A DNA stretch of 64,000 bases from Alphaproteobacteria bacterium. Its GTDB lineage: Bacteria > Pseudomonadota > Alphaproteobacteria > RF32 > CAG-239. A program made the translations under genes and the position numbers. The stretch is from assembly GCA_017635595.1 (NCBI GenBank), contig JAGBLF010000023.1, forward strand, positions 8,398-72,397, given 5' to 3'. Below the pieces are notes generated by a model. It did no database searches. It saw only the letters and a program-made list of their open reading frames with translations, and was not told the DNA's origin. Below are positions 25,116 to 60,975 of the stretch, piece by piece (positions within the stretch are counted from its first letter, which is position 1; every line of letters begins with the position of its first letter).

Positions 25116-25829
25116 TCAATCGCCGTCATACATTTTCATTTTACGGCGCATAACTTCAATAACGTCTTCCGTTCTTCCTAAATTTTCCATATCGGCCAGC
25201 TTATTTTGACGTCTGCGCTCGGCGGCGATGACATTTTCTCGCTCTTCACAAAGACGTTCTTCCCCTGCGCTTTTAGCTTCTTGTTTTTCTTTTTGTACCG
25301 GTGTTGGAGCGGACAGCAAATCCTGATGTTTTTCAGCAAAACTCTGCCTTCTTCTTTTCTCGCGTAATTCAAAGGCTTCTTCATCGGTTAGTCGGCGACT
25401 ACCGCCGTTGAATCGGCGATTACGCTCAATTTTCAGATGTTCTTTATAGGATTCGACTTCAGGCACATTCATAATGTATCCGAGAGTAGACGATTTACCT
25501 TCGGCACGCATTTGTTTAAATGTTTGCAAAATCTGAGGTTCAATCCGCTCGCACATGCGCATATATGACTCATATTCCAAAGTTCCTTTCGGTGCATGAA
25601 AACCTTGTGAAAAATCAATTTCCGGATCATGCCAGCCGTTTTCTTTCAAAAACACGGAACCGACACCATAATCCACCAATGTTTCGCCGGACAATTTCAT
25701 CCGGCTGTAAAACATCATTTCATGTGTTACACCTAATTTATTGGCATCTGTCGGCGCAATATCTATAAAAATTTCGTCAGAGTGCTCTAATTGTGAACAA
25801 ATAACTCTATAAATTTTATTTTCTTCCAT
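25116..25829 (-). CDS. Hypothetical protein, paralog A of a tandem pair (conserved N-terminal E-N-x-I-Y-R-V-x-C-S domain, charged Arg/Glu-rich tail)
   Basis: Begins MEENKIYRVICSQ..., compared with MVADENIYRVVCSR... in the neighbour. The internal Met at 25829 abuts the stop of paralog B at 25831. Confidence 0.45.
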   Translation of the reverse strand: MEENKIYRVICSQLEHSDEIFIDIAPTDANKLGVTHEMMFYSRMKLSGETLVDYGVGSVFLKENGWHDPEIDFSQGFHAPKGTLEYESYMRMCERIEPQILQTFKQMRAEGKSSTLGYIMNVPEVESYKEHLKIERNRRFNGGSRRLTDEEAFELREKRRRQSFAEKHQDLLSAPTPVQKEKQEAKSAGEERLCEERENVIAAERRRQNKLADMENLGRTEDVIEVMRRKMKMYDGD

Positions 25830-25830
25830 T

Positions 25831-26382
25831 TCAACGCTCACAGTCTTTATATTGATTCCAACGCATTTTTTGAATCGGATCAATATGATCATTTTGATAT
25901 CTTATTTTTTTATCTTCTTCAAGTTTTTTATGTCTTTCGAGATCTTCTTTTGCTTTAAAAACACGTTCCTCGGCCGCCGATTTCGGATAATCCTGCTCGG
26001 TTGCAGAGACATAAACCCCGTAATTATTATCCAAATCATAGCGTGAAATGGTTGTCACAACGCCATCAGCCTTCATTTGAGCGAATTTTTCTTTAATCAT
26101 TATTTCCATTTTAGGGAACACTGTTTTATCATACGGCCAATAATCTGTCAGCAAAAAATAATCTTTTTTTGCCAAAAACTCTATCTTCGGCTCAGCTGAA
26201 TCCGGTCTGTCATATAAGAAAATTGCACCGGCAACATCCTCGGCATGGCTATTCAGGCGTTTTCTTGTATCCATAACAAGTTGATGAATTGCCCACTTTG
26301 CGGGAATAATATCGATATAATATTTGCCATCATAGCTATCACGCGAGCAAACAACGCGATATATATTTTCATCAGCAACCAT
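25831..26382 (-). CDS. Hypothetical protein, paralog B of a tandem pair
   Basis: Shares its N-terminal ~140-aa domain with the adjacent gene. Lys/Glu-rich tail. Confidence 0.45.
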   Translation of the reverse strand: MVADENIYRVVCSRDSYDGKYYIDIIPAKWAIHQLVMDTRKRLNSHAEDVAGAIFLYDRPDSAEPKIEFLAKKDYFLLTDYWPYDKTVFPKMEIMIKEKFAQMKADGVVTTISRYDLDNNYGVYVSATEQDYPKSAAEERVFKAKEDLERHKKLEEDKKIRYQNDHIDPIQKMRWNQYKDCER

Positions 26383-26480: not shown

Positions 26481-26572
26481 GGTGAGATGGCAGAGTGGTC
26501 GAATGCGGTTGACTCGAAATCAATTGTACGTTTTACCGCGTACCTAGGGTTCGAATCCCTATCTCACCGCCA
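26481..26572 (+). tRNA. tRNA-Ser (anticodon CGA), class II with long variable arm, encoded CCA
   Basis: Acceptor GGTGAGA/TCTCACC. Anticodon stem GTTGA/TCAAT with loop CTCGAAA. Variable-arm hairpin GTACG-TTTTACC-CGTAC. T-arm TAGGG-TTCGAAT-CCCTA. Discriminator G followed by CCA. Confidence 0.85.
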
Positions 26573-26612
26573 ATAACAGTAAAGGGCACCTTCGGGTGTC
26601 CTTTACTGTTAT
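26573..26612 (+). terminator. Hairpin terminator after tRNA-Ser (AACAGTAAAGGGCACCTTCGGGTGTCCTTTACTGTT)
   Basis: Long inverted repeat directly 3' of the tRNA. Confidence 0.5.
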
Positions 26613-26796
26613 CCGTTGGCTCAGAAGATTTGAATCATAGGTACGCGAAGTACCTAGGGCCGGAGGAACAAAAACAACCTCAAAATGTTGTTTTTGGACG
26701 ACGGGCGAAGGTTGCTTTTGAGCAAGCCAGCGTCAGCGACGCACAGCGAAAAACAGCAACCGAGTGACCGAGACAACACTCAAGTGTTGCAAGAAG

Positions 26797-26821
26797 AATC
26801 CCTATCTCACCGCCAATAACA
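26797..26821 (+). repeat. Direct repeat of the tRNA-Ser 3' end (AATCCCTATCTCACCGCCAATAACA), att-like copy 2
   Basis: 25/25 identical to 26554-26578. Preceded by a divergent partial tRNA copy (GTACGCGAAGTACCTAGGG) and a ~140-nt insertion rich in hairpins. Confidence 0.55.
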
Positions 26822-26968
26822 AAAGAGCGCCTTATGGCGCTTTTTTTTGTTATTGTTGGTCGATGGGTTCGAACCCTAGAGGATGGGTTCGACGACAAGC
26901 GAAAGGCAGACGTAAGTATGCCGGTCGGCCGTAGCCGATGAGCGCCGGCGCACGGAGTGAAACGGAGT

Positions 26969-26986
26969 AATCCCTATCTCACCGCC
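26969..26986 (+). repeat. Direct repeat of the tRNA-Ser 3' end (AATCCCTATCTCACCGCC), att-like copy 3
   Basis: 18/18 identical to the tRNA T-arm/acceptor 3' half. Preceded by a GGGTTCGA fragment, then an ~85-nt insertion. Confidence 0.5.
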
Positions 26987-27001: not shown

Positions 27002-28198
27002 TCAAATCTTAAAAACTTCTTTATCATCATGCAGTTCTACATTATCAAACACCTCTTTGAACTGCTTGGGAAAGAAAGTATGTATCGGCACGATTCTCTT
27101 CGGATTTATGGCTAAAGCAAATTTTTGCAATGTCGGAATATCCGCATGACCGGAAGTATGAATATCATACATCGGTACATTTTTTTCCTTCATTAAATCC
27201 AACCGTTCTTGATACAACTCTTTGTAGCCGTCCCACATAGAATAGATAAAGGAAGCATTTTCGTTAACAAGCGAACTGCTTTTTAAGATATTGAAAATCA
27301 GTCCGCCGAACATAATCACATATTTAGATGGATTTTGCTCTATCATCTCTTTGGTTATATTATGCGGTGCCGTACTATCTGTTGCAAACTTTTTTATATC
27401 CGGCCATTTAAGACTCGGCAAATGTTCGTTATTTAGCACCATCAAGATATGCCCGGTGTAACCGCTTATAACTAAAGTTCTACCACTTTTCTTTGCTGCC
27501 CTGTAAATGGTAACGATACGGTCAATATTTTGTGAGGAGCTTTGAATAAAGGCTACGCTTTTGGTTTTCTTAAATACCTTTTCAAATTCTGCCTCAAGAG
27601 ATGCCTCAGACGGATATTTTGTTGACTGTTCACGACCAAGACAAGAGCCTTCCATCATCAAAACATCAATATCTTTGGGAGGATTTTTGATAAAACCGTC
27701 AAATAATTTGCCCTTGCGCCCATGGGCACGAAAGTCCCCGCTGTAAAACAAGCGTTTACCGTCGGCCTCTATCAAAAAGGCGTATGCTCCGTATGCGGAA
27801 TGGTCAACCAGATATGGCGTTATGGTAAACGGACCGATAGAAAAAGAAGTTTTATCATCAAAAATATGTATATTACCGAAAGCAAAGGCATTGGGAAGAT
27901 TGTGCTTTACACATACATCCATGATATCGGCAGTTGCCTGGCTCATATAAACCGGGATGCTGTTATCAATATGCAAACCTAAGCCATAATGATCTTGGTG
28001 CGGATGAGAAATAAGAATTCCCAATAAATCATCAGTTTTATTTTTCAATCCCTTAATATCGGGTAATAAATTAGCATTATTTTCTTCGGCATCCAATGGT
28101 AGTCCTAAATCAATAATCAAACGTTCGCCGGAACTGGCAGTTAATTCCACAGCCGAACCGCCGATTTGATTTGCCCCTCTCTTAATACAAGCTTTCAT
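27002..28198 (-). CDS. MBL-fold metallo-hydrolase of the beta-CASP nuclease family
   Basis: MBL motifs: D (IIDLG), HxHxDH (ISHPHQDHYG), H (VDHSAYG), D (YSGDFRAHG). Beta-CASP motifs A (LMMEGS), B (SGYTGH), C (DIHTSGHA). Start overlaps the upstream gene's stop (ATGA coupling). Confidence 0.7.
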   Translation of the reverse strand: MKACIKRGANQIGGSAVELTASSGERLIIDLGLPLDAEENNANLLPDIKGLKNKTDDLLGILISHPHQDHYGLGLHIDNSIPVYMSQATADIMDVCVKHNLPNAFAFGNIHIFDDKTSFSIGPFTITPYLVDHSAYGAYAFLIEADGKRLFYSGDFRAHGRKGKLFDGFIKNPPKDIDVLMMEGSCLGREQSTKYPSEASLEAEFEKVFKKTKSVAFIQSSSQNIDRIVTIYRAAKKSGRTLVISGYTGHILMVLNNEHLPSLKWPDIKKFATDSTAPHNITKEMIEQNPSKYVIMFGGLIFNILKSSSLVNENASFIYSMWDGYKELYQERLDLMKEKNVPMYDIHTSGHADIPTLQKFALAINPKRIVPIHTFFPKQFKEVFDNVELHDDKEVFKI

Positions 28199-29079
28199 TT
28201 ACAACTCTTTTTTTGTAAATAATCATAAACATTTTCAAGCAAAATCATATCTTTTCTAAACAGTCTGTCATCATCTTCTAAAAAGACGAAGTTTGATATC
28301 AACAAATCTTTTCTTTCGATTACATCTTTTAACTGCCGCATCAAACTGCCTGATTTAAAAGGATAGTGAGACATTGCAAAAATATATTCCGGTTTAATTT
28401 CTGGCGAAAAATTAATATCTTTTCCAAACTTTAGCAGTCCTAAGTGACTGAGCTGTTCTACAACTTTTTGCATATCCGTCAAGAAATCGGTATTATAATA
28501 AAGCTCTATAAAATCAACAGCCTTCTTGTAATGACCTTTTATACCCGAATCATTATCACCACCGCCCACAGAAGTATATCCTTCTTTCAGTTCAATAAAA
28601 GCTAAACCCAAGTTCTTTTGATCTGTCATGTAAACGGCCAACGCATCAAAACGCGTTTTACCGTCTTGAGTATATTCAACATCGAAAACTTGATAATCGG
28701 TATCCTTTTCCTTGTTATCGCACACAAGTTTTTGTTGTGTTACTTTTTCGCCCAGATTACCGCGGTTATAATTATCCAGAAAAACTTTAGCCTTTTCAAA
28801 ATAACCTTTCCAATTTCCTCCGAAATCAGTTAATGAGATCGGATAGTTCTTAACACCTTTATAACCAAAATAATTGCCGTTAACAATTGGGGCTGACTGC
28901 GGTAATATTTTTAAAATTTGCAATGTTTTATAATAAACCGTGACATATTTTCCGCGCAAAAACATAACTAATTGCGGGTCGTTTTTTACACAATCGACAA
29001 TTTCATGCAAATCTCCATTCGCTTGTAATCTCTTCAAAAAATTTTCAGATATTTGCCTTTTATTCATAATCAACGCCAC
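28195..29079 (-). CDS. Hypothetical protein with putative PD-(D/E)xK nuclease-like core
   Basis: ...VFDVEYTQDGKTRFDALAVYMTDQKNLGLAFIELKEG... gives an E / D / E-L-K spacing consistent with restriction-endonuclease-fold motifs I-III. The assignment is weak and based on motifs only. Confidence 0.35.
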   Translation of the reverse strand: MALIMNKRQISENFLKRLQANGDLHEIVDCVKNDPQLVMFLRGKYVTVYYKTLQILKILPQSAPIVNGNYFGYKGVKNYPISLTDFGGNWKGYFEKAKVFLDNYNRGNLGEKVTQQKLVCDNKEKDTDYQVFDVEYTQDGKTRFDALAVYMTDQKNLGLAFIELKEGYTSVGGGDNDSGIKGHYKKAVDFIELYYNTDFLTDMQKVVEQLSHLGLLKFGKDINFSPEIKPEYIFAMSHYPFKSGSLMRQLKDVIERKDLLISNFVFLEDDDRLFRKDMILLENVYDYLQKKSCK

Positions 29080-29088
29080 TACTTACTT

Positions 29089-30051
29089 TTATTCTTTTTC
29101 ATCGTACCAATCTTCCGGTTTAATAACTTTAACGTGTTTACCCCATGTATACAAATGCCAATCCATTTCCATGCGACCGCCGGCACGGAATTTAACCGTC
29201 AACGTTCCATCCGGATTTTTAACAGTTTCCTGCTGCGGATGAAACTCATATTGCGCGGCTTCGGCGGCAGTTTCGGCATCAAACAACCATTCAACATCGA
29301 AAGGCCGTTCATGAAAAGCCCCAAATGCTTCCATTGCATATTGTTTCAAATCAAAATCCGCCACCATCTGAAACGGCTGTCCCAAAATCTCGACTTTTTC
29401 AATGTTGCTCAAAATAAAATTGCGCACCTCATTGCCGGCATATCCGTCACTGTGTCGCGCCACCAGATAGTGATTGCGTTCGCCATACAGAAAGCCGTAC
29501 GGATCCAGCGTATTATAACTGTATTTTCCGCTGTTTTTATTATAATATTTAATGCGGATTTGATGACATTCCAAAATAGCGCGGCGAATAGTTTCTAAAA
29601 TTTCATCATTTATTTTCAGCTTCGGACCGGCACGACAAATAAATCCTTCGGCTTCCAATAAGGCCTCGGCATCCGGTTCAATACGCCGATATACATCAGG
29701 TTTAATGTTAGCCCTTATTTTAGCAATCAATTTTTGCAAAACATCTTTTTTACCCTGCATTTGTTTTTTATCAAACATTGTTACCGCTGTTTCCAAAACC
29801 GAGAGTTCCTCGGCCGAAAACTGAATAAAATCTTTTAACGTTCCCTGCGGAATATACCACCGTTTAGTATTGTTTTCACCGACAATTTCTTCGGTTTGCG
29901 GAAAACGTTCCAAAATCATATTGCGCATACGCTCGGCCGTTCGACGTGATACGGCAAAATTTTGCATAATATCGTTCAACGAAACGCCCTCACGGTTCGA
30001 TTGCATTAAAATCGCTAATTCGAGTAAATCATGTGTTTTTTCATAAACCAT
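29089..30051 (-). CDS. HTH-WYL-WCX transcriptional regulator (BrxR/CapW/PafBC-like)
   Basis: N-terminal HTH (VSLNDIMQNFAVSRRTAERMRNMI). Central WYL domain (IRIKYYN...YGFLYGERNHYLVARHSDGYAGNEVRNFILSNIEKVEILG). C-terminal WCX-like extension. Confidence 0.75.
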   Translation of the reverse strand: MVYEKTHDLLELAILMQSNREGVSLNDIMQNFAVSRRTAERMRNMILERFPQTEEIVGENNTKRWYIPQGTLKDFIQFSAEELSVLETAVTMFDKKQMQGKKDVLQKLIAKIRANIKPDVYRRIEPDAEALLEAEGFICRAGPKLKINDEILETIRRAILECHQIRIKYYNKNSGKYSYNTLDPYGFLYGERNHYLVARHSDGYAGNEVRNFILSNIEKVEILGQPFQMVADFDLKQYAMEAFGAFHERPFDVEWLFDAETAAEAAQYEFHPQQETVKNPDGTLTVKFRAGGRMEMDWHLYTWGKHVKVIKPEDWYDEKE

Positions 30052-30122
30052 TACTATCCTCCGCTCATATTACCTGCTCATTTTATTATAATCTGCCAGC
30101 CATCGTCAAGAAGTAAAAATCA

Positions 30123-32207
30123 TTAAATAAAACCAATATGGTGTTCAACCGGCATTTTATTTTGTTGTTCCTGCTCAAGCATTTTGATCAGCTCATCTTT
30201 ATCCGATAGGCAGCCGATAATTTCCGCTTTGTCATGCACAACAACAAAATCGCCCGGAGTCAGTGTTGCCAAATGCGATAAATCGACGTTTTGAAAATTG
30301 AAGAAATGCTCAAAACAACGACTGCGCTGATTTGGCGTCAGATAATCGTATTTCACCTTAAAAGTAAAGCGTCGCAAAGAGGCTTTATCCAGCTTATCCA
30401 TCAAGTTTGTCGTGCAGACAAACGGATATTGGTGCTGCTCCATCTGTGTCAGCATTTCATTAACCTGTGTAACTTCCCAATTGCGAAATGCCCCGTTCCG
30501 ATCTTGCAAAAAGCTGTCCGCCTCATCAAAAATCAGCAAAGCGCCACGTTCTTTGGCTTCCTCGAAAGCCTCGGCGATTCGGTGTTCGGTTTCACCGACA
30601 TACGGACCGATTAAATCGGAGCATTTTTTCTTTAATACCGGCAAATTCAACTGCTCGCCCAAATATTGAGCAAAGGCAGACTTTCCGGTACCTGAAGCCC
30701 CGTATAAACACAGCGAGAAATTCATTTTACCTAAAGCTGTTATTTTATCGGCAAATGTTGTTAAATTCACATCGGTATTGAGCAGTTCCGGATTAAAGGC
30801 AATTTTTTGCAACTTTCTTTCTTCTTTAACTTTGTGACCGTTATTATAAACCTGTTGCAAAACATCCAAAGTCTGTTCGACTTCCGACAATCCGCCACCG
30901 ATAAGTTTGACCGATTTGACAGCCGAGGCAATAAATGCCGGCGATAACGAATATTTGGCGGCAAACTTTTTAGCTGTTGCGGCATCTGCCGGCAAATTGT
31001 TGGCTTGCAAACTTTTTTGCCACATCTCCTCGCGTACCGTTTTCTTCGGGCGCGTAAAGTTTAAGGCATAAGTAAAGCGCCGCAAATATGCCTTATCTAC
31101 ACGACGGATATTATTGACAATCCAGATAATCGGTTGGCGATTTGTTTCCAAAAGGCGATTTACCCTGATTTTTGTAGCACTCTTGTTTTTCTTGCAACCG
31201 AAAAAGTAGTCATCTTCTTCCAGCACATCATCTGCTTCATCGAGCAAAAGAACAACATCTTTATCCTTTTGCAAAATCATTTGCGTACGCAAAAGTTGGG
31301 CAAATCGGTTTGTATCGGCTTCTTCTTCCACCACCGTAAACGGGTTCTCGCCAACGGCATATAATGAGGCGGCAACTTCGGCCGTCAGGGTCTTGGCAAA
31401 TTCGGTCTTACCTGTTCCCGGCTCGCCGTATAATAAGATGTTAATGCCTTTTGTTTTCTTGGTTTTGGCCGCCTGCATAATGTTTTTTACCACATCAATT
31501 TGCTCGATATGCTTAAAATCCTGCCATTGCAGAGCCGGTGCGCAAGGCGTACCGACCAAAAACGAACGAATATCGTCGATACTGTCAAATTTTTGAAAAT
31601 AAAATCTTTTTGTTAAGCGCGAAATATCAACATCGCCGTCATAGTCGGTTTCCATAAGTCCGAGTCGATTTAAGGCACAATCTTGTTTGCACATCTTAAA
31701 AAGCGTGTCCGGTTTAATATTCAAAAACACGGCCCGGTCATAAATCGTCATGTCGCCGTGTGACTTAAAATCATATAAAATACTGCGAAATAAGCTGTCA
31801 CATTTTTCGCGAATAACGAAACCCAAAAACTCTTTTTCTTCATCTTTTAAGGCAAACAATTGTTGCAAATAAAGCAGATTTCTCTCCAAATGCCCTATTT
31901 TGTAATGCCGAACGGCCAACGCTGTTTTAGCAAGGTCCTCGGCAAATTTTTTAACCAAAAGCCGCGCATCTTTTTTATGACGTTTGGCATAGTCGGCTAA
32001 ATTGAAATCCATATCATCTTTGCCGACTTTATCGGGCTTAATTTTGCACGGACAGTCAAAATAGTTGTCGCACTTTTCATCTAACCATTCACAAGTATTT
32101 TTTAAATTTTGCCGAACGTAAACCTGGTTATTCAGTACATTAAGTACATAAGACAGTATCTTTTGCTTTTCGAAATTTTCAGACATTGTGTTTTCCTCCA
32201 TATTCAA
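30123..32207 (-). CDS. Tandem AAA+ ATPase (two classic AAA modules) with ~250-aa Cys-rich N-terminal domain
   Basis: Walker A GEPGTGKT and GASGTGKS. Walker B LLLDEADD and LIFDEADS. Second-region-of-homology arginines in both modules (VNNIRRVDKAYLRRFT; CTTNLMDKLDKASLRRFT). N-terminal CEWLDEKCDNYFDCPC cluster. Confidence 0.75.
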   Translation of the reverse strand: MNMEENTMSENFEKQKILSYVLNVLNNQVYVRQNLKNTCEWLDEKCDNYFDCPCKIKPDKVGKDDMDFNLADYAKRHKKDARLLVKKFAEDLAKTALAVRHYKIGHLERNLLYLQQLFALKDEEKEFLGFVIREKCDSLFRSILYDFKSHGDMTIYDRAVFLNIKPDTLFKMCKQDCALNRLGLMETDYDGDVDISRLTKRFYFQKFDSIDDIRSFLVGTPCAPALQWQDFKHIEQIDVVKNIMQAAKTKKTKGINILLYGEPGTGKTEFAKTLTAEVAASLYAVGENPFTVVEEEADTNRFAQLLRTQMILQKDKDVVLLLDEADDVLEEDDYFFGCKKNKSATKIRVNRLLETNRQPIIWIVNNIRRVDKAYLRRFTYALNFTRPKKTVREEMWQKSLQANNLPADAATAKKFAAKYSLSPAFIASAVKSVKLIGGGLSEVEQTLDVLQQVYNNGHKVKEERKLQKIAFNPELLNTDVNLTTFADKITALGKMNFSLCLYGASGTGKSAFAQYLGEQLNLPVLKKKCSDLIGPYVGETEHRIAEAFEEAKERGALLIFDEADSFLQDRNGAFRNWEVTQVNEMLTQMEQHQYPFVCTTNLMDKLDKASLRRFTFKVKYDYLTPNQRSRCFEHFFNFQNVDLSHLATLTPGDFVVVHDKAEIIGCLSDKDELIKMLEQEQQNKMPVEHHIGFI

Positions 32208-32260
32208 ACAGAAGATAACAAATGACTACAGCAAATTATGTCATATTATAAAAAGGAAAA

Positions 32261-33310
32261 TCAATTTTCTTTTTGCAAAAAATTTTCGCCGATATACTCA
32301 ACTAAATCGAGAACAGCAAGCAATTCCGTAATCACACGGTTTTCGGCTCGCGGATTGTCCAAAGGCCTAAATAAACCGCTAAATTCAAACATTGCATTTT
32401 TTTCCGATGTTTCGGCGGCAAAAACGACATTGTTATCAAAAAAAGCTGCCTTAATATTTCCCGTCCCGAACGCAGCCTTCATCTTATAAAATTTTTCCAT
32501 AAAAACAGGTGTTAATAACCGCCTCGCCAACAACTGATTTGAAGTATGAATTTTGTATTTCTTTTCAAAACCGATACTTTCGGTCTTCACACTTTGCAAG
32601 TAATGAAACCAAAAAATCAATACTTCAAGTCCTAAAAGACAGACTGAAAGAATCCCCATTCCTATCAGTTCACTGATACTGATACGGTCACGAAAATTAT
32701 AAAGGCACACCATACTGAGCAATACCGACACAAGCCCAAAAGAAAAACCGCGTATAAATAAATCAGATTTAGGCGTAATTATGGTAGATGACTTAAAATC
32801 TTGTCCGGTTTTAATATGCAAGACTATTCCATTAAATGCGACTTCTCGCGATCCTCTATGAGGCGTATACAAATTCAACTCTGAAGCATTGAAAGATATC
32901 CCTTTGCAAATTCCGTCAAAACAATCATCTGCTTCAATTTCGGTGAAAAAACCAAATAAATGGCTGTAATTTAAAACAGTCTCATCGCATAACTTGTCAG
33001 CTCTTTTGAGCTGCGGAAACAATGCCAATATTTTATCCAAACATTGCTTTTTCATATACTTTTTAAAAGCATAGTCATACCATATAGGCAGAATAACCAT
33101 CACCGCGATAAGGCCGATGATTGCCAAGATGCATATTGACGACAGATCATCTGATTTTTGTGCGCACATAGCTTCTAAGCGAAAAAACAAAGCGACTACG
33201 GCAAAACAAAATCCCTCAAAAAGAATAACTTGATTTAGCCGCCGCCGACGTTCAGGTTCGTAATCTCTTAAAATTTCAAATGCCGAGTTTTTGATATTTA
33301 TGTATGTCAT
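32261..33310 (-). CDS. Hypothetical membrane protein (2 TM + soluble domain + 2 TM + soluble C-terminal domain)
   Basis: Start moved to ATG 33310 (MTYINIKNSAF...), preceded by AAAGGGA. Hydrophobic pairs around residues 35-75 and 225-265. Confidence 0.4.
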   Translation of the reverse strand: MTYINIKNSAFEILRDYEPERRRRLNQVILFEGFCFAVVALFFRLEAMCAQKSDDLSSICILAIIGLIAVMVILPIWYDYAFKKYMKKQCLDKILALFPQLKRADKLCDETVLNYSHLFGFFTEIEADDCFDGICKGISFNASELNLYTPHRGSREVAFNGIVLHIKTGQDFKSSTIITPKSDLFIRGFSFGLVSVLLSMVCLYNFRDRISISELIGMGILSVCLLGLEVLIFWFHYLQSVKTESIGFEKKYKIHTSNQLLARRLLTPVFMEKFYKMKAAFGTGNIKAAFFDNNVVFAAETSEKNAMFEFSGLFRPLDNPRAENRVITELLAVLDLVEYIGENFLQKEN

Positions 33311-33431
33311 TACCAGATTCCCTTTTAGGAAAATCATAAAATGCACCGATAATAAAATCAATACATTTTTGTTTACAAAACCGGATAAGAATGTTACAAT
33401 ATCACTGTACGTGCAAAAAAGGAGAAGCATT

Positions 33432-33607: not shown

Positions 33608-33928
33608 TTAAATTCGCGTTTGGAAATAGTACGCAACACTGTCTTCCAAATATTTTAAAATTCGATTGTAGTTTTCGGGAATATTTGTAATCTTAAACGA
33701 ATCATTTTTATCAAAATGGTACATAAAACATTTTAGGACTTGCCCGTAAATAAAATTGATTTCACGGGCCGCTTCGGATACCTCGATTTTTTCGTCTGCC
33801 GCTTGCCGAACAGCATCATACAGCTGCTTAAACGCCTCTCTGTGAAATTGCTGTTTATGCTGCAAATAATCGAGAAAAGAGCCTTCTTTGCCCTCAAAAT
33901 TACTTTTTAAAATATCTTGCGCACTCAT
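33608..33928 (-). CDS. Hypothetical protein (106 aa)
   Basis: Intact ORF with no recognisable motif. Confidence 0.4.
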   Translation of the reverse strand: MSAQDILKSNFEGKEGSFLDYLQHKQQFHREAFKQLYDAVRQAADEKIEVSEAAREINFIYGQVLKCFMYHFDKNDSFKITNIPENYNRILKYLEDSVAYYFQTRI

Positions 33929-34049
33929 CTTAAAAATTCCAAATCACACATATCCATAAAACAGACTTTTCAAAAAATCGTTAATATACATATTGTATTT
34001 CTTATGAAATATAGTATGATATATTAAAGAAAGCAAAGGAAAAATTAAA

Positions 34050-34430
34050 ATGATTGTTCGTATTGTTCTCGGAGTTATTCTCGGTTTCTTGCTGGTAGCC
34101 TACTTTCCGCTTGTTATAAGAGTATTACCGTACTTATTACCAATAGCTATTCTCGGCATAGCTTTTATATTTTTGCGCTCAGCACCGATGCTTGCCGAAC
34201 CGCTCAGCTACGGATTACTGGCTGTACTCTTATGTTATGTGATATTTTTGCTGTGGCGATACAAAACACAGGTTAAAAACGTATTAACCAAAAAAGAAAA
34301 AATACCTAATCTGCCGGTTATTAACATCAAAGGACATCCGCAATTAAGCGCTCTTATCACAATGACTGCCTACACTCTCGGACTGACTTTTGTATTGTAC
34401 TTAATTATATTGCTGATTTACGTCAAATAA
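34050..34430 (+). CDS. Hypothetical membrane protein (4 TM, 126 aa)
   Basis: RBS AAAGGAAAAATTAAAATG. Four hydrophobic helices. Confidence 0.45.
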   Translation: MIVRIVLGVILGFLLVAYFPLVIRVLPYLLPIAILGIAFIFLRSAPMLAEPLSYGLLAVLLCYVIFLLWRYKTQVKNVLTKKEKIPNLPVINIKGHPQLSALITMTAYTLGLTFVLYLIILLIYVK

Positions 34431-34521
34431 TATTACTTTCGTCATATTTACATTATATTAAAAATATGGCACTATGTTTTATGTGATTATACATAACGAC
34501 TCTTATTTTGGAGAAAGACAA

Positions 34522-35487
34522 ATGTTAAATTTAACTAAGCAAGGTCTCTCGGCAGATTCTGAGGTTCTGAGCCTTAATTCAAATTCCGTTTTTGCTGATA
34601 ACAAAAAAAGTCATCCTTGCGAAAGCGAGGATCTCGACCGAATCATTTTAAGCAGCCGAGATTCTCGAGCCTGCGGCTCAAGAATGACAGGTAAAAATAT
34701 TGGCTCAAGAATGGCAGGTAAAAATATTGGCTCAAGAATGACAGTAAAATGTGAGAGCGGCCTTCTTTCGATATGTGCTGCAGATGCGCCGCAATTTTCG
34801 AGTGCCGTGTACAACAGAGGTACACAAGCGAGAAAGTTGCAAGCAGGTGCCACACAGAGCGGCCGCAGCATGATTGAAATGCTCGGTGTACTGGCCATTA
34901 TCGGTGTGCTGTCGGTGGGCGGTATTGCCGGCTATTCGAAAGCCATGATGCAATACAAAATAAACAAGACTGTCGATCAAATATCCCAAATTGTCGGTAA
35001 TGTTAGGACATTGTATGCAAGTCAAAAAAACTATAAAGGATTATCTTGTTCTAGTGAACCTACAAAATGTCATACGTTGATCAAAAAGGCACATCTTGTA
35101 CCGGATGAACTATGGAACAGTGATGGAACTAGCCTTGAAAATGCTTTTGGAGGGACATTAACGGTAAATGTCGGCTCAAAAAAATCATCTTATGATGACA
35201 AAGCTTTTGGGGTTGATTTATATAATCTTCCCGAAGAGGCATGTATGGCATTGTCTACTTATGACTGGGGCTCTGGTTCTTCTTCCGGTTTAATTGCAAT
35301 CAGTGTAAATCATGGAACTGTACTTGAAATAGATAGTTATTCTGTTGGTTGTGCAGGCACATCTTCTGATGGTAAAGCCATCGCCTGTCCGAATGGTGCA
35401 ACCGTTTCAATTCCTATGCCTATTAATATTGCAGCTACGGCTTGTCAAACAGGAGATAGTAATACAGTTTCACTTAAGTTCTATTAA
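34522..35487 (+). CDS. Membrane protein with type-IV-pilin-like N-terminal segment (G-RSMIEMLGVLAIIGVLSVGGIAGY, Glu at +5) and Cys-containing C-terminal domain; N-terminal region carries 9-aa tandem repeats. Alternative: processed prepilin starting at TTG 34837
   Basis: RBS GGAGAAAGACAAATG at 34522. The hydrophobic helix matches the prepilin methylation-motif spacing. The C-terminal Cys pairs resemble a pilin disulfide loop. The translation start is uncertain. Confidence 0.4.
   Translation: MLNLTKQGLSADSEVLSLNSNSVFADNKKSHPCESEDLDRIILSSRDSRACGSRMTGKNIGSRMAGKNIGSRMTVKCESGLLSICAADAPQFSSAVYNRGTQARKLQAGATQSGRSMIEMLGVLAIIGVLSVGGIAGYSKAMMQYKINKTVDQISQIVGNVRTLYASQKNYKGLSCSSEPTKCHTLIKKAHLVPDELWNSDGTSLENAFGGTLTVNVGSKKSSYDDKAFGVDLYNLPEEACMALSTYDWGSGSSSGLIAISVNHGTVLEIDSYSVGCAGTSSDGKAIACPNGATVSIPMPINIAATACQTGDSNTVSLKFY
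34675..34744 (+). repeat. 27-bp tandem repeat x2.6 (GGCTCAAGAATGRCAGGTAAAAATATT), in-frame (encodes GSRM[T/A]GKNI)
   Basis: Three near-identical adjacent units read directly from the sequence. Confidence 0.8.
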
Positions 35488-35508
35488 ACGGATTTATCTT
35501 TTATCAAA

Positions 35509-35535
35509 GCGCCGCCTGTAAAGGTGGCGTTTTTT
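35509..35535 (+). terminator. Putative terminator (GCGCCGCCTGTAAAGGTGGCGTTTTTT)
   Basis: Imperfect GC-rich stem followed by a T-run after the pilin-like gene. Confidence 0.4.
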
Positions 35536-35539
35536 AAAT

Positions 35540-35910
35540 TGTTGTCGTTTTGCAGTCAGTACAGTGTTGAAAAAAACTCGGATAATGTGTCTAGTACGAA
35601 GAAACCTCTCTTGCGCAGTGTACAAAACAGTACATAAGGCAACCGGCACGACACAAAAAAACTCGGATAGCATGCGTTAATACGACGTAAGCCTTTTCTC
35701 GCCGTGTACAAAATAGTACATAAGGCAACCGGCACGGCATAAAAAAACTCGGATAGCGTGCGTTAATACGACGTAAGCCTTTTCTCGCCGTGTACAAAAA
35801 GGGTACATAAGGCAACCGGCACGGCACAAAAAAACTCGGATAACGAGGCTAGTACGCAGAAACCTCTCTTGTGCAGTGTACACAAAGGTACATAAACAAG
35901 AGAGGTTTCA
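35540..35910. repeat. Composite tandem repeat array, ~86-bp period x4: conserved ~53-bp module (GTGTACAAAANAGTACATAAGGCAACCGGCACGRCAYAAAAAAACTCGGATA) alternating with two alternating ~33-bp intervening segments (A, B, B', A'); terminal unit forms a perfect 13-bp hairpin (GAAACCTCTCTTG...CAAGAGAGGTTTC)
   Basis: Read directly from the sequence. The ORF-track proteins 35591-35883 repeat internally because they translate this array. Confidence 0.8.
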
Positions 35911-35935
35911 AGTAATAGACCGTTAGACGAGTTTT

Positions 35936-36946
35936 TTAGAAGTGATCGTCGGAACGCTTGATCAATTCCTCAATATTCTCAGGCGGCCAACCCGGCGTTT
36001 CCATGCCTAAGTGAATACCCATCTTTGCCAAAACTTCTTTGATTTCGTTCAAAGATTTGCGACCGAAGTTCGGCGTACGAAGCATTTCGGCTTCTGTTTT
36101 TTGAACCAAATCACCGATATAAACGATATTATCGTTCTTCAAGCAGTTAGCTGAACGAACCGATAATTCAAGTTCATCAACCTTACGCAACAGGTTTTTG
36201 TTGAACGGTAATTCTTCGCGAACATCCTCGGTTTCACTTTCCGGTTCATCAAAGTTGATAAACGGTTTCAATTGGTCTTGCAAAATGCGAGCTGCATAAG
36301 CAACAGCATCTTCCGGCGTTACAACACCATTGGTTTCAACGACCATTGTTAATTTATCATAATCGGTAATTTGACCGACACGGGTATTTTCAACTTTGTA
36401 AGAAACCTTTTTAACCGGGGAATAAATCGCGTCAACGGCAATCAAGCCAATCGGAGAATCGGCTGACGTGCTGTTAGCGGCCGGAACATAACCTTTACCG
36501 GTTGTTACTGTTAATTCCATACGAATTTTTGCACCGGCATCCAACGTGCAGATGATATGATCCGGATTCATAATTTCAACATCATGACCGGTTTCAATCA
36601 TAGCAGCCGTAACCGTACAAGGACCTTCAGCCTTCAAGGTTAAAGTCTTTGTCATTTCGGTATGAACGGAAACTGCCAATTCCTTAATGTTCAAAACGAT
36701 ATCGGTAACATCTTCTCTGACGCCCGGAATAACGGAAAATTCGTGCAGGACACCGTCAATTTTAATAGCTGAAACAGCACCGCCTTGTAATGAAGATAAT
36801 AAAACTCTTCTCAAAGCATTACCTAAAGTAAGGCCAAAGCCTCTCTCTAAAGGTTCAACCACAATTTTAGCTTTATTCGAACCGTCTTCTTGAGACACAT
36901 CGAGCTTTGTTGGTTTAATAAGTTCTTGCCAATTCTTTTGAATCAC
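35936..36946 (-). CDS. rpoA: DNA-directed RNA polymerase subunit alpha
   Basis: Full RpoA NTD/CTD conservation ([17 protein letters not shown]...). The likely start is the internal GTG ([12 protein letters not shown]) preceded by AAAGGA. The ORF-track TTG extension adds 18 unsupported residues. Confidence 0.9.
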
Positions 36947-59577: not shown

Positions 59578-60975
59578 TTATTCTTTAGTCTTTTTCTCTT
59601 TTTTACCGACGACTTTGTCGATAACCTGTTGTCCGATAGGGCTTTGTGCCATTGTTTCGAACATACCGGCCAAATTCAACCCGCCTTGCGGCGAAAAGAC
59701 ATCGGCGACCTTAGACACACCCGACGGTATGGTATTTGCCATTGTGTTAATTTTAATATCGGCATTACCCAAGTTTTTAGCTTGTTCAATACCGACTTCA
59801 CACAAAGCTTTGATTTGTTCCAAACGAACCAAATAGTCTTGATAACCTTGATTCTCACCTATTTCCTTAGCCAACGTGATTTGCGCATTAACCGGTGCCA
59901 ATTCCATTTGCTTTTTGGCTTCGGCTTCGGCTTTACCTTTAGCTTCGATAGCTTGAGCTTCTTTCAAACCTTTGCTCAATTCGGCCTCGGCTTTCAATTC
60001 GATTTGTCGTTTATCGGCCTCGGCGCGCAATTCGACTTGTGCTTTGACGGCTTCTGCGTTCTTAACCGCAACTTCTTTATTTTGTTCAGCCAAAATAATA
60101 TTGGCTTCTTTATCGATTTCGGCTTTTTTAACCTGAGTGACTTTTTGAACTTCCATTTCTTTTTCTGCAGTTACTTTTGCCTGTTCTTTAACGGCTTGTT
60201 TTGCCCGTTCGTCTGCCAAACCGACTTCTCGTTGAACTGTTGCCTTTTTCATGCCGACTTGCTGATTAGCTTCTTCTTGCTTTAAATCGACATCCTGAGC
60301 GGCCTGAATTTCGGCTTCGCGTGCTTTTTTCATATTAGCGGCAACTTCCGAACGCGACTGCATTTCGATTTCGGATGATTTTTTTGCCATAATATTACCG
60401 ATAACTTCAGAATCTTTGGCATCACGAACATCCATCAACTCGATATTCTTCACCGGCTCAACACCCCAATTACCGAGCTGTTCTTTAACCATTTCTGTAA
60501 ACCTCGAACCGTAAATAGCACGCTCACCCATAATATCTTCAAGCTCGGCATTGGCCATAATGGAACGTACCGCACCGCGTACAATGTCGGTAATTTGATT
60601 TTTTAATTCGGAAAAATCACTGATTCGCGCCGCCGCCGTATTAGAATCCGAAATACGGAAAAACGCTTTAACATCAACAACAAAAGGCAAACGCCCTTTA
60701 TCATAAGCCTCATAGGCAACCAATGTGACATCAAAAACAGAAATAGGCAAAGTTGTTCGTGTAACACCGATATAAGGGATACATGCCGGAAATTCATAAT
60801 ATACATTTCCTCTGTTTTCCTTGGAGCCTTTACCGTAAGAAATTGTTTCTTTACCGCGTTGAATAATATGCACCTCATTAGTCGGCACAACGCGACGTAA
60901 ACTGAATACCCAAAAAGCCAAAACGACAATAACTGTCGCTAACACAACCAAGGCAATGATAACATTTTCTCCCAT
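59578..60975 (-). CDS. Flotillin-like SPFH/band-7 domain protein with long coiled coil
   Basis: N-terminal TM, SPFH domain, then a long Ala/Glu/Lys-rich heptad region (EAQAIEAKGKAEAEAKKQ). Start at ATG 60975, preceded by GGGAGG. Confidence 0.75.
   Translation of the reverse strand: MGENVIIALVVLATVIVVLAFWVFSLRRVVPTNEVHIIQRGKETISYGKGSKENRGNVYYEFPACIPYIGVTRTTLPISVFDVTLVAYEAYDKGRLPFVVDVKAFFRISDSNTAAARISDFSELKNQITDIVRGAVRSIMANAELEDIMGERAIYGSRFTEMVKEQLGNWGVEPVKNIELMDVRDAKDSEVIGNIMAKKSSEIEMQSRSEVAANMKKAREAEIQAAQDVDLKQEEANQQVGMKKATVQREVGLADERAKQAVKEQAKVTAEKEMEVQKVTQVKKAEIDKEANIILAEQNKEVAVKNAEAVKAQVELRAEADKRQIELKAEAELSKGLKEAQAIEAKGKAEAEAKKQMELAPVNAQITLAKEIGENQGYQDYLVRLEQIKALCEVGIEQAKNLGNADIKINTMANTIPSGVSKVADVFSPQGGLNLAGMFETMAQSPIGQQVIDKVVGKKEKKTKE

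Follow-up and report, generated by a model that had tools for sequence, protein, structure and literature searches.

Introduction

The Caulobacter regulator DriD binds single-stranded DNA (ssDNA) in its WYL domain and activates didA, the nuclease gene bapE, recA, recJ and dnaG via a 20-bp palindrome (PMC9186387; PMC13004042), and the CapW-type WYL repressors of defence systems likewise sense ssDNA (PMC11662680). Here we describe a gene set that brings a DriD-type WYL regulator together with predicted nucleases, found in a stretch of 64,000 nucleotides (the window) from the genome of an uncultured gut alphaproteobacterium assigned to CAG-239 (GenBank assembly GCA_017635595.1, contig JAGBLF010000023.1). 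Five minus-strand genes beside a tRNA-Ser gene encode a putative beta-CASP nuclease of the metallo-beta-lactamase (MBL) fold, a PD-(D/E)xK-fold partner, the regulator, a tandem AAA+ ATPase and a membrane protein. Comparison with related loci indicates that the PD-(D/E)xK and MBL proteins are the conserved core, that this pair is accessory and mobile with a patchy distribution, and that the regulator and the ATPase are its recurrent but facultative companions. Most likely, the set serves as an inducible nuclease system in defence or in the response to DNA damage.

Several described systems share parts with this locus. DriD has the same full-length HTH-3HB-WYL-WCX architecture, it also switches on a nuclease gene (bapE), and its 7-N7-7 type of palindrome occurs at promoters of loci related to ours. 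The difference is that the regulator here sits inside a mobile cassette beside its presumed targets, sometimes in two copies per locus, and that the boxes of the window are degenerate. BrxR and CapW, the repressors of BREX, CBASS and other defence operons, have in common with our regulator the winged HTH-WYL-WCX architecture and a position by nuclease or defence genes, and the ligand-controlled transcription of toxic effectors (the ligand of CapW being ssDNA) may be a further likeness. However, when the WYL protein of the window was compared with PDB sequences, DriD, its relatives and PafBC were returned and no BrxR or CapW entry at E<=0.01, and PADLOC gives generic WYL models only.

On the effector side, a defence function is proven for MBL-fold DNases of another clade (PMC12642450), and Avs2/Avs4-MBL and HamMAB employ MBL-fold nucleases against phage (PMC12642450, PMC13069673). 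Those enzymes differ from ours in that they belong to that other MBL clade, are zymogens cut by an adjacent protease and are not described as beta-CASP proteins, whereas the cassette in the window has no protease but a nuclease partner and an AAA+ ATPase accessory. The partner has in common with Shedu SduA, Hachiman HamA, Can2/Card1 and type IV restriction enzymes the restriction-endonuclease fold and a D...ExK motif. In ietAS and CBASS TRIP13, as here, classic AAA+ remodellers are attached to defence effectors; the second AAA module of our ATPase (D2) resembles IetA (PADLOC, 1.7e-34) and the first (D1) resembles TRIP13 (2.6e-20), but these are matches of single AAA domains only, and the protein in the window has a tandem architecture and a distinct N-terminal region. 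We considered and rejected an identification as ietAS, given an NCBIfam IteA score of 110 against a cutoff of 510 and a cluster with neither an IetS protease nor a HORMA partner.

PADLOC-DB v2.0.0 holds 0 families for the MBL protein, the partner and the DUF3137 membrane protein, with only generic WYL and AAA matches for the other two, and in the literature we found no paper that combines a beta-CASP/MBL protein with PD-(D/E)xK, WYL and AAA+ proteins. The initial annotation of the window, made from the letters and open reading frames (ORFs), had not recognised the set as any named defence system, and both results agree with it. We rate it as a kind of WYL-controlled, ATPase-assisted nuclease cassette whose combination is undescribed.

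The nuclease pair

An ORF scan confirmed five co-directional minus-strand ORFs at 27002-33430, at the coordinates first reported for them, and the profile libraries scanned (Pfam, NCBIfam, PADLOC and PHROGs) bore out the domain assignments. The genes, named by predicted product, and the tRNA gene are as follows.

27002 to 28198, minus strand: beta-CASP MBL nuclease, 398 aa
28195 to 29079, minus strand: PD-(D/E)xK-fold partner, 294-aa ORF
29089 to 30051, minus strand: HTH-WYL-WCX regulator of the DriD family, 320 aa
30123 to 32207, minus strand: tandem classic-clade AAA+ ATPase, 694-aa ORF, 687 aa as called
32261 to 33310 as called (ORF to 33430), minus strand: DUF3137 membrane protein, 349 aa
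26481 to 26572, plus strand: tRNA-Ser(cga), from ARAGORN and the Rfam tRNA model

The partner and MBL ORFs overlap by 4 nt. Alignment of homologues places the likely start of the partner at ATG 29067, which corrects the start of the 294-aa ORF, and the deposited gene call also starts later than that ORF. Gene callers start the AAA+ gene at 32186, which gives the 687-aa product.

The MBL protein matches Pfam Lactamase_B_2 (1.8e-12) and, weakly, RMMBL. Motifs 1-4 of the MBL fold (D, HxHxDH, H, D) and motifs A-C of beta-CASP proteins (D/E, H, H) are all present, and in 14 homologues with 46-85% identity the residues D30, H65xH67xD69H70, H133, D155, E183, H347 and H373 are invariant. The best solved relative by sequence is Enterococcus faecalis EF2904 (PDB 2az4; full length, 2e-17), followed by the catalytic cores of RNase J, and the weak matches among PDB sequences include Apollo/SNM1. 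In an AlphaFold2 model (pLDDT 89) the protein appears as an MBL fold with an inserted beta-CASP domain, for which Foldseek gives TM scores of 0.80-0.82 to 2az4, ~0.76 to RNase J and ~0.7 to CPSF73. The invariant residues and this modelled fold uphold the claim, made when the window was first read, of an MBL/beta-CASP nuclease with all seven motifs.

Although RNase J and EF2904 share the fold and all of the motifs, the protein is best described as an RNase J/EF2904-like catalytic core and is not itself an RNase J, because it scores 72 bits in the NCBIfam RNase J subfamily (TIGR00649/RnjA) against a cutoff of 400, matching profile positions 21-252 only, and because at 398 aa it is without the C-terminal dimerisation domain of RNase J (total ~550 aa). 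It also differs from both in being obligately paired or fused with a PD-(D/E)xK protein; EF2904 is uncharacterised. By analogy with these relatives, it probably acts by two-metal-ion hydrolysis, as a 5'->3' exonuclease or as an endonuclease. The family is large, with >7,400 clusters at 90% identity, and none of its named members has an annotation other than "MBL fold metallo-hydrolase", "hypothetical protein" or "ribonuclease J".

The 294-aa partner had zero matches in Pfam, NCBIfam, PADLOC and PHROGs, no sequence match in the PDB and no membership of a curated family. That it is a PD-(D/E)xK protein had been a guess from an E...D...ELK pattern, and the guess is now supported because the model has a PD-(D/E)xK fold and because E111, D145 and E163-L-K165 are invariant in its homologues; the alpha-beta-beta-beta-alpha-beta core of the superfamily and its D...(D/E)xK motif are both present. 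The N-terminus is an alpha/beta domain of ~100 aa with a weak likeness to YjbR/YdhG-type folds, and we propose that this domain evolves fast. Close relatives of the protein make up only four clusters among 5.8 billion sequences, and a profile built from these four clusters retrieved 1256 representatives, mostly of ~300 aa.

Conservation and distribution of the pair

In every context that we read, a gene for a protein of ~300-326 aa that has no Pfam match abuts or overlaps the gene for the ~398-aa MBL protein, in either order, in bacteria, in archaea and on plasmids. Taking one genome per GTDB species (185,579), we found 386 loci in many bacterial phyla as well as in Bathyarchaeia and Crenarchaeota, so that the MBL family is present in ~0.2% of species genomes. 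Adjacency was surveyed in the best 80 of these 386 loci, which are phylogenetically clustered. A partner of the same family as ours (family A) adjoins the MBL gene in 38/80, the partner gene coming first in gut Alphaproteobacteria and the MBL gene first elsewhere, and the remaining surveyed loci have other partners of ~300-350 aa, of which one matches Pfam PDDEXK_4 and one cluster has a D...ELK motif. When the family-A partner was compared with the other clusters by hhalign, cluster 4 was clearly related (98%) and cluster 6 suggestively so (69%); cluster 2 was rejected as a family-A homologue (4.6%, not significant), although the stretch that aligned was the D...ELK motif. Natural fusions of partner and MBL protein also exist (P0127, 702 aa; P0228, 683 aa).

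Neighbouring genes are given as a qualitative list only, since the neighbour survey (129 proteins) was made without a matched control. On Ochrobactrum and Rhizobium plasmids, the pair lies near restriction-modification (R-M), GIY-YIG and AddAB-like genes, and elsewhere its neighbours include DISARM, SLFN/AlbA, NERD-UvrD, GmrSD, SRA-HNH and HsdM genes, integrases and serine recombinases. A phage origin of the cassette was considered and dropped: IMG/VR has only 8 relatives of the MBL protein in 2.9 million viral contigs, and GenBank phages gave 5 distant matches to it and one match to the AAA+ protein.

The pair also bears signs of cassette exchange. The MBL protein of the window is 92-93% identical to those of two metagenome-assembled genomes (MAGs; from roe-deer reticulum and horse faeces), while the partner proteins are only 39-44% identical. 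At the DNA level, identity to two of the related loci, which we refer to by their handles (91% to L021, 90% to L019), is confined to the MBL ORF at 27004-28198 and is lost on either side. Over all pairs, the identity of the partners follows that of the MBL proteins (r = 0.88) but is lower, and the partner in the window is an outlier. Because the MBL DNA is ~91% identical over the ORF only, while the partners are 39-44% identical, the comparison points to a recent exchange of one of the two genes, with breakpoints that coincide with the ends of the ORF.

The regulator, the ATPase and their operators

The regulator matches Pfam HTH_11 (weakly), WYL and WCX. Its alignment with Caulobacter DriD (PDB 9pfq, 8tp8) covers residues 2-314 with an E-value of 3e-49, and the sequence RRTAERMR in the N-terminal HTH region is identical, which indicates that it is a full-length DriD homologue with the domain order kept. 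The initial annotation had rightly called an HTH-WYL-WCX regulator but had likened it to BrxR and CapW; on this comparison it belongs with DriD and is not of the BrxR/CapW kind.

Two Pfam AAA domains (1.4e-36, 2 stretches) were found in the ATPase, which also matches phrog_10401 over its full length (5e-88). Walker A and B are invariant in both modules (GEPGTGKT and DEAD in D1, G(V/A)SGTGKS and FDEADS in D2), D2 also has a YVGE(T/S)E pore loop and LRRF, and the N-terminal region of ~230 aa is helical. The best PDB matches are NVL, VAT and p97, and because the D2 pore loop resembles those of Vps4, katanin and FtsH, the ATPase seems to be an unfoldase of proteins rather than a motor on DNA. The initial annotation as a tandem classic AAA ATPase holds, except that the N-terminal domain had been described by a cluster of cysteines, which is absent from homologues.

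In gut Alphaproteobacteria (L028-L039), where the arrangement varies, homologues of the AAA+ and WYL proteins lie beside members of the MBL family, and so they do in three other groups: the order is AAA+-MBL-WYL followed by two GmrSD genes in a Bacteroidales MAG (L042), MBL-AAA+ in a Pseudomonadales MAG (L067), and SNF2/PLD helicase, AAA+, partner and MBL in Desulfobulbus (L062). A more distant AAA+ homologue stands first in an operon of AAA+, HAD/PNKP, a 240-aa protein and an MBL protein of the same family, with a divergent WYL gene and with DUF2779, GmrSD, SRA-HNH, integrase and HsdM genes around it. AAA+ and WYL genes also occur together without the MBL gene, with DUF2779 and DUF6994 in one setting and, on Rhodobacterales plasmids, beside ADP-ribosylglycohydrolase, HEPN and AddAB-like genes; on a Methylomonas plasmid the AAA+ gene is found with RtcB, and a PD-(D/E)xK protein and a WYL gene are a few kb off.

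Some of these plasmids share more. On the Ochrobactrum plasmid (L099), an AddB-like PD-(D/E)XK protein (~850 aa) and a UvrD-helicase (~1070 aa) adjoin the MBL pair, and on the Leisingera and Fuscovulum plasmids (L105, L106) the same AddB-like and UvrD-helicase genes lie beside an AAA+-WYL-ADP-ribosylglycohydrolase(-HEPN) set. This recurrence hints at a larger shared neighbourhood.

The five genes of the window had been proposed as one system. Four of them recur together in other genomes, which is an argument for a functional unit, with the pair alone as the core, often without WYL and AAA+ genes; the fifth, DUF3137, recurs in none of the loci compared. Its product matches Pfam DUF3137 (1.2e-20) and has four hydrophobic segments by hydropathy. 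Neither it nor a 106-aa ORF further upstream has a homologue among 98 related loci, and because no other locus has a homologue we regard the DUF3137 protein, as far as such comparison goes, as a neighbour and not as a component of the conserved unit.

To look for operators, we used the pattern ATACGAC-N7-GTCG(C/T)AT, derived from the Caulobacter DriD promoters printed in PMC13004042. In 288 kb of related loci there are 21 boxes with <=2 mismatches, against ~1.8 expected, and AAA+, partner and MBL genes have boxes of the DriD type (ATAYGAC-N7-GTCRTAT) at their promoters. With a slightly looser pattern and 3 mismatches, a box is found at the start of 9/21 AAA+ genes and 8/22 WYL genes, against a background of 0.04 per 350 bp. 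Near-perfect boxes precede the partner gene by 46-49 bp in L019-L021 (0 mismatches in L020 and L021), others lie 38 bp (L006) and 137 bp (L003) upstream of the pair, and the Bacteroidales and Methylomonas loci also carry boxes of this type. In L003, L006 and L019 there is no intact WYL gene beside the pair (L019 has a truncated WYL ORF downstream of the MBL gene), which suggests that these boxes may be regulated in trans by a DriD encoded in the genome. L028 (2132-12857) has two side-by-side AAA+/WYL cassettes, each with DriD-type promoter boxes: one is AAA+, PDDEXK_4 (395 aa) and WYL, and in the other the WYL gene is divergent from an MBL gene, with a family-B partner and an AAA+ gene.

The strict pattern has no site inside the cluster of the window. 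Two candidate elements were noted there.

32226 to 32246, minus strand: degenerate candidate operator of the DriD type, ATATGACATAATTTGCTGTAG, just upstream of the AAA+ start, with 3 mismatches to ATAYGAC-N7-GTCRTAT
30080 to 30109, minus strand: sigma-70-like promoter TTGACG-18-TAAAAT, situated in the 72-bp gap before the WYL gene, joint-best in the region at 10/12

The first of these, ATATGACATAATTTGCTGTAG, is identical to the L028/L029 box at 16/21 positions; its position weight matrix (PWM) score of 9.7 is below the shuffle mean and is not significant alone. A box-like 7-7-7 element at 30091-30111 that overlaps the WYL promoter has 5 mismatches and is not significant. The best PWM site of the window, at 60921, is inside a flotillin-like ORF and was dropped, and a 44-bp imperfect palindrome within the coding region of the WYL gene (29938-29981) was put down to chance.

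A possible role for the cassette

The following is how the set might work. The MBL protein and the PD-(D/E)xK endonuclease would be the core, two subunits of one enzyme if they form a complex, with their genes translationally coupled. ssDNA, arising when phages or plasmids replicate or when DNA breaks, would be the trigger and bind to the WYL domain, upon which the regulator would shift transcription, up or down, at DriD-type boxes before the AAA+ gene and the nuclease operon. The PD-(D/E)xK subunit would recognise a target, DNA or RNA, and nick or cut it, and the MBL subunit would degrade the target from the new 5' end. The AAA+ protein might remodel a protein partner, either to license or disassemble the nuclease complex or to strip protein off the target. 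The outcome would be the destruction of invading nucleic acid or, as abortive infection, of the cell's own.

We give about an even chance to the reading that this is an accessory, horizontally exchanged two-subunit nuclease cassette with a DriD-type regulator and an AAA+ protein and with a role in conflict or defence. Conflict or defence is favoured because DISARM, SLFN/AlbA, NERD-UvrD, GmrSD, SRA-HNH and R-M genes, integrases and plasmids are nearby, and this gene context makes a defence role plausible. The same cassette may, more tentatively, belong to a widespread unnamed immune system, in which an ssDNA-sensing WYL protein of the DriD type controls a beta-CASP/PD-(D/E)xK heteromer, a swapped partner sets specificity, the AAA+ protein licenses the enzyme and the regulator and its operator were co-opted or are ancestrally shared; we would sooner bet against this broader proposal than for it.

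A number of observations weigh against a defence role. The neighbourhoods are heterogeneous and some are plainly chromosomal, with rsmB, ogt, tyrS and holA adjoining, and AAA+ and WYL genes are absent from most loci of the pair, which makes the four-gene unit facultative. The closest characterised relatives of the MBL protein are ribonucleases. The operator signal of the window is weak, with a 3-mismatch box before the AAA+ gene and nothing convincing before WYL-partner-MBL, and the pair adjoins tRNA-Ser in seven related loci, a position that seems fairly stable, not variable. As the two proteins lack a PADLOC model, defence is read from their gene context alone. Of the candidate defence or nuclease island that had been proposed for this region, the nuclease domains and a recurring gene set are thus what we retain; its argument from a lack of housekeeping rationale is weakened by the link to DriD.

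The link to DriD also opens the main alternative, which we consider possible though less likely than a conflict role: the cluster could be a DNA-damage-response module of a DriD-type regulon, in which the ssDNA-bound WYL protein activates the nuclease pair. The pair might then process ends or remove lesions or cross-links in the manner of SNM1/Apollo, or, once damage is severe, fragment the chromosome in the manner of BapE, with the AAA+ protein clearing proteins stuck on DNA. Such a module would account for a full-length DriD homologue with an identical RRTAERMR, for boxes that match the Caulobacter sites (PMC13004042) and for their presence before pairs without an adjacent WYL gene in L003, L006 and L019, and DriD itself activates recA, recJ, dnaG and the nuclease gene bapE (PMC9186387). 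AddAB-like, RtcB, HAD-PNKP and RNase_T neighbours do occur, and Apollo/SNM1 is among the weak PDB matches. However, the patchy spread, which resembles horizontal gene transfer and includes archaea and plasmids, the exchange of the partner as a cassette and the duplicated cassettes in L028 weigh against this reading, the frequent R-M, GmrSD and DISARM neighbours suit conflict systems better than core repair, and many pairs have neither a box nor a WYL gene.

Chance could also have put the five genes together in a hotspot flanking the tRNA gene, as separate partner-MBL, AAA+-WYL and DUF3137 modules. In most loci partner and MBL genes do stand without the others, AAA+-WYL is found without MBL on plasmids and in L103, DUF3137 is unique to the locus of this organism, and the WYL gene has a separate promoter-like site before it. 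We think this unlikely, since AAA+ and WYL genes are directly beside the MBL family in at least 4 unrelated phyla and both families are rare, so that a chance association is very improbable, and one type of operator precedes both AAA+ genes and nuclease operons.

The tRNA-Ser gene and the island question

The 3' end of tRNA-Ser(cga) faces the stop codon of the MBL gene. The whole 64 kb has exactly three copies of its 18-nt core, AATCCCTATCTCACCGCC, where 0.03 would be expected; they start at 26554, 26797 and 26969, and the first is within the tRNA gene.

26797 to 26814 and 26969 to 26986, plus strand: two exact repeats of the tRNA 3' end, each of which closes a short scar-like segment; the second stops 16 bp short of the MBL stop codon

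In seven related loci a tRNA-Ser gene likewise lies beyond the MBL stop (L003, L012, L022, L024, L025, L027 and L040). The distance is 80 bp for tRNA-Ser(cga) in L012 and L027 and ~280 bp for tRNA-Ser(gga) in L040, whereas in L003 a SACS/NOV_C gene, and in L022, L024 and L025 an 8.4-kb element with a ParB-methylase, a TerL-like gene and a serine recombinase, separates the MBL gene from tRNA-Ser(cga). L003 and L022 each have one extra copy of the tRNA end, and a segment of the spacer between tRNA and MBL is 73-78% identical to DNA in L019 and L022. An Rfam scan of this spacer found only the tRNA plus sub-threshold noise.

These observations bear on the earlier view that a genomic island, having integrated at the tRNA-Ser 3' end, carries the cluster as cargo, with the copies as att-like marks. 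Three copies are indeed present, the module is always on the 3' side of the tRNA, the serine-recombinase element uses the tRNA site in L022, L024 and L025, and the genes upstream of the pair differ across species. However, all of the copies lie between the tRNA and the MBL stop and so do not bracket the genes: no distal copy was found beyond 33.4 kb in the window, where one had been suggested as a check, nor beyond the pair in L012 or L027. The ORF scan and Pfam found no integrase gene in 24-36 kb, the GC content of the cluster (0.34-0.42) is inside the spread across the window (0.32-0.47), and other elements in the relatives insert between MBL and tRNA, so that the pair looks like a resident flank. 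An exact search with the rpoA protein for strains without the island matched only the same organism. We therefore think that island cargo is a doubtful description of the cluster; the simplest reading of the arrangement would be an integration hotspot at the tRNA 3' end, with the pair as a resident gene set on its far flank.

That the MBL protein is instead a housekeeping enzyme of RNA processing, an RNase J paralogue or a factor in tRNA maturation, is very improbable: RNase J cores are its closest characterised structures, an RMMBL motif is weakly present, JGI labels homologues as ribonuclease J and the adjacency to tRNA-Ser is kept in the seven loci, but the protein has 72 bits instead of 400, no C-terminal domain and a presence in ~0.2% of species genomes, always with a partner of restriction-endonuclease fold that is sometimes fused to it, and it is found on plasmids and in defence-rich islands.

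Other features of the locus and its relatives

Segments of ~150-225 nt that are closed by copies of the tRNA-Ser 3' end occur in the window (26573-26986), in L019 (15419-15571), in L022 (19599-19801) and in L003 (at 12151); they resemble pseudo-tRNA or att scars or else a small non-autonomous unit at this hotspot. The element of ~8.4 kb (L022 11209-19000; also in L024, L025 and L008-L011) encodes a 232-aa protein, Bflower_2, a ParB-N6_N4 methyltransferase, DUF5681, Terminase_6C, DUF2924 and a large serine recombinase, and it resembles a phage satellite or prophage remnant. The gene between MBL and tRNA in L003 (7625-12049) encodes a 1474-aa sacsin-like (SACS) and NOV_C protein, possibly a further defence-type gene at the hotspot. 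On the 5' side of the tRNA-Ser gene in the window, at 25116-26382, two adjoining minus-strand ORFs of 258 and 183 aa have no Pfam or PHROGs match, and their N-termini are alike by eye (...IYRV(I/V)CS...).

Upstream of the cluster, rpoA (35936-36946, minus strand) has no rplQ after it; instead, the stretch at 33608-36946 has 86-nt repeats, a type IV pilin gene, a 126-aa hydrophobic ORF and the 106-aa ORF mentioned above. The repeats, four tandem units of ~86 nt at 35592-35935 with 62-100% identity to the reference copy, occupy the space that separates the PilS/bundlin-type pilin gene from the rpoA stop. The pilin gene itself (34474-35487) has PilS/Bundlin domains and an N-terminal extension, where tandem repeats of 27 nt are found at 34675-34755. 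Everything from rpoA to gmk might belong to a variable region.

Implications

If the cassette is functional, it would represent a new effector architecture, in which an RNase J-like beta-CASP nuclease is paired or fused with a nuclease of restriction fold. Partner swapping around a nearly unchanged MBL gene would then suggest a mechanism for swapping specificity. A functional cassette would also tie the DriD branch of WYL regulators, so far known mainly from a DNA-damage activator of Caulobacter, to mobile nuclease cassettes, with the conserved operator as the way to a testable regulon. Assigning a function to the MBL family would correct the annotations of many proteins.

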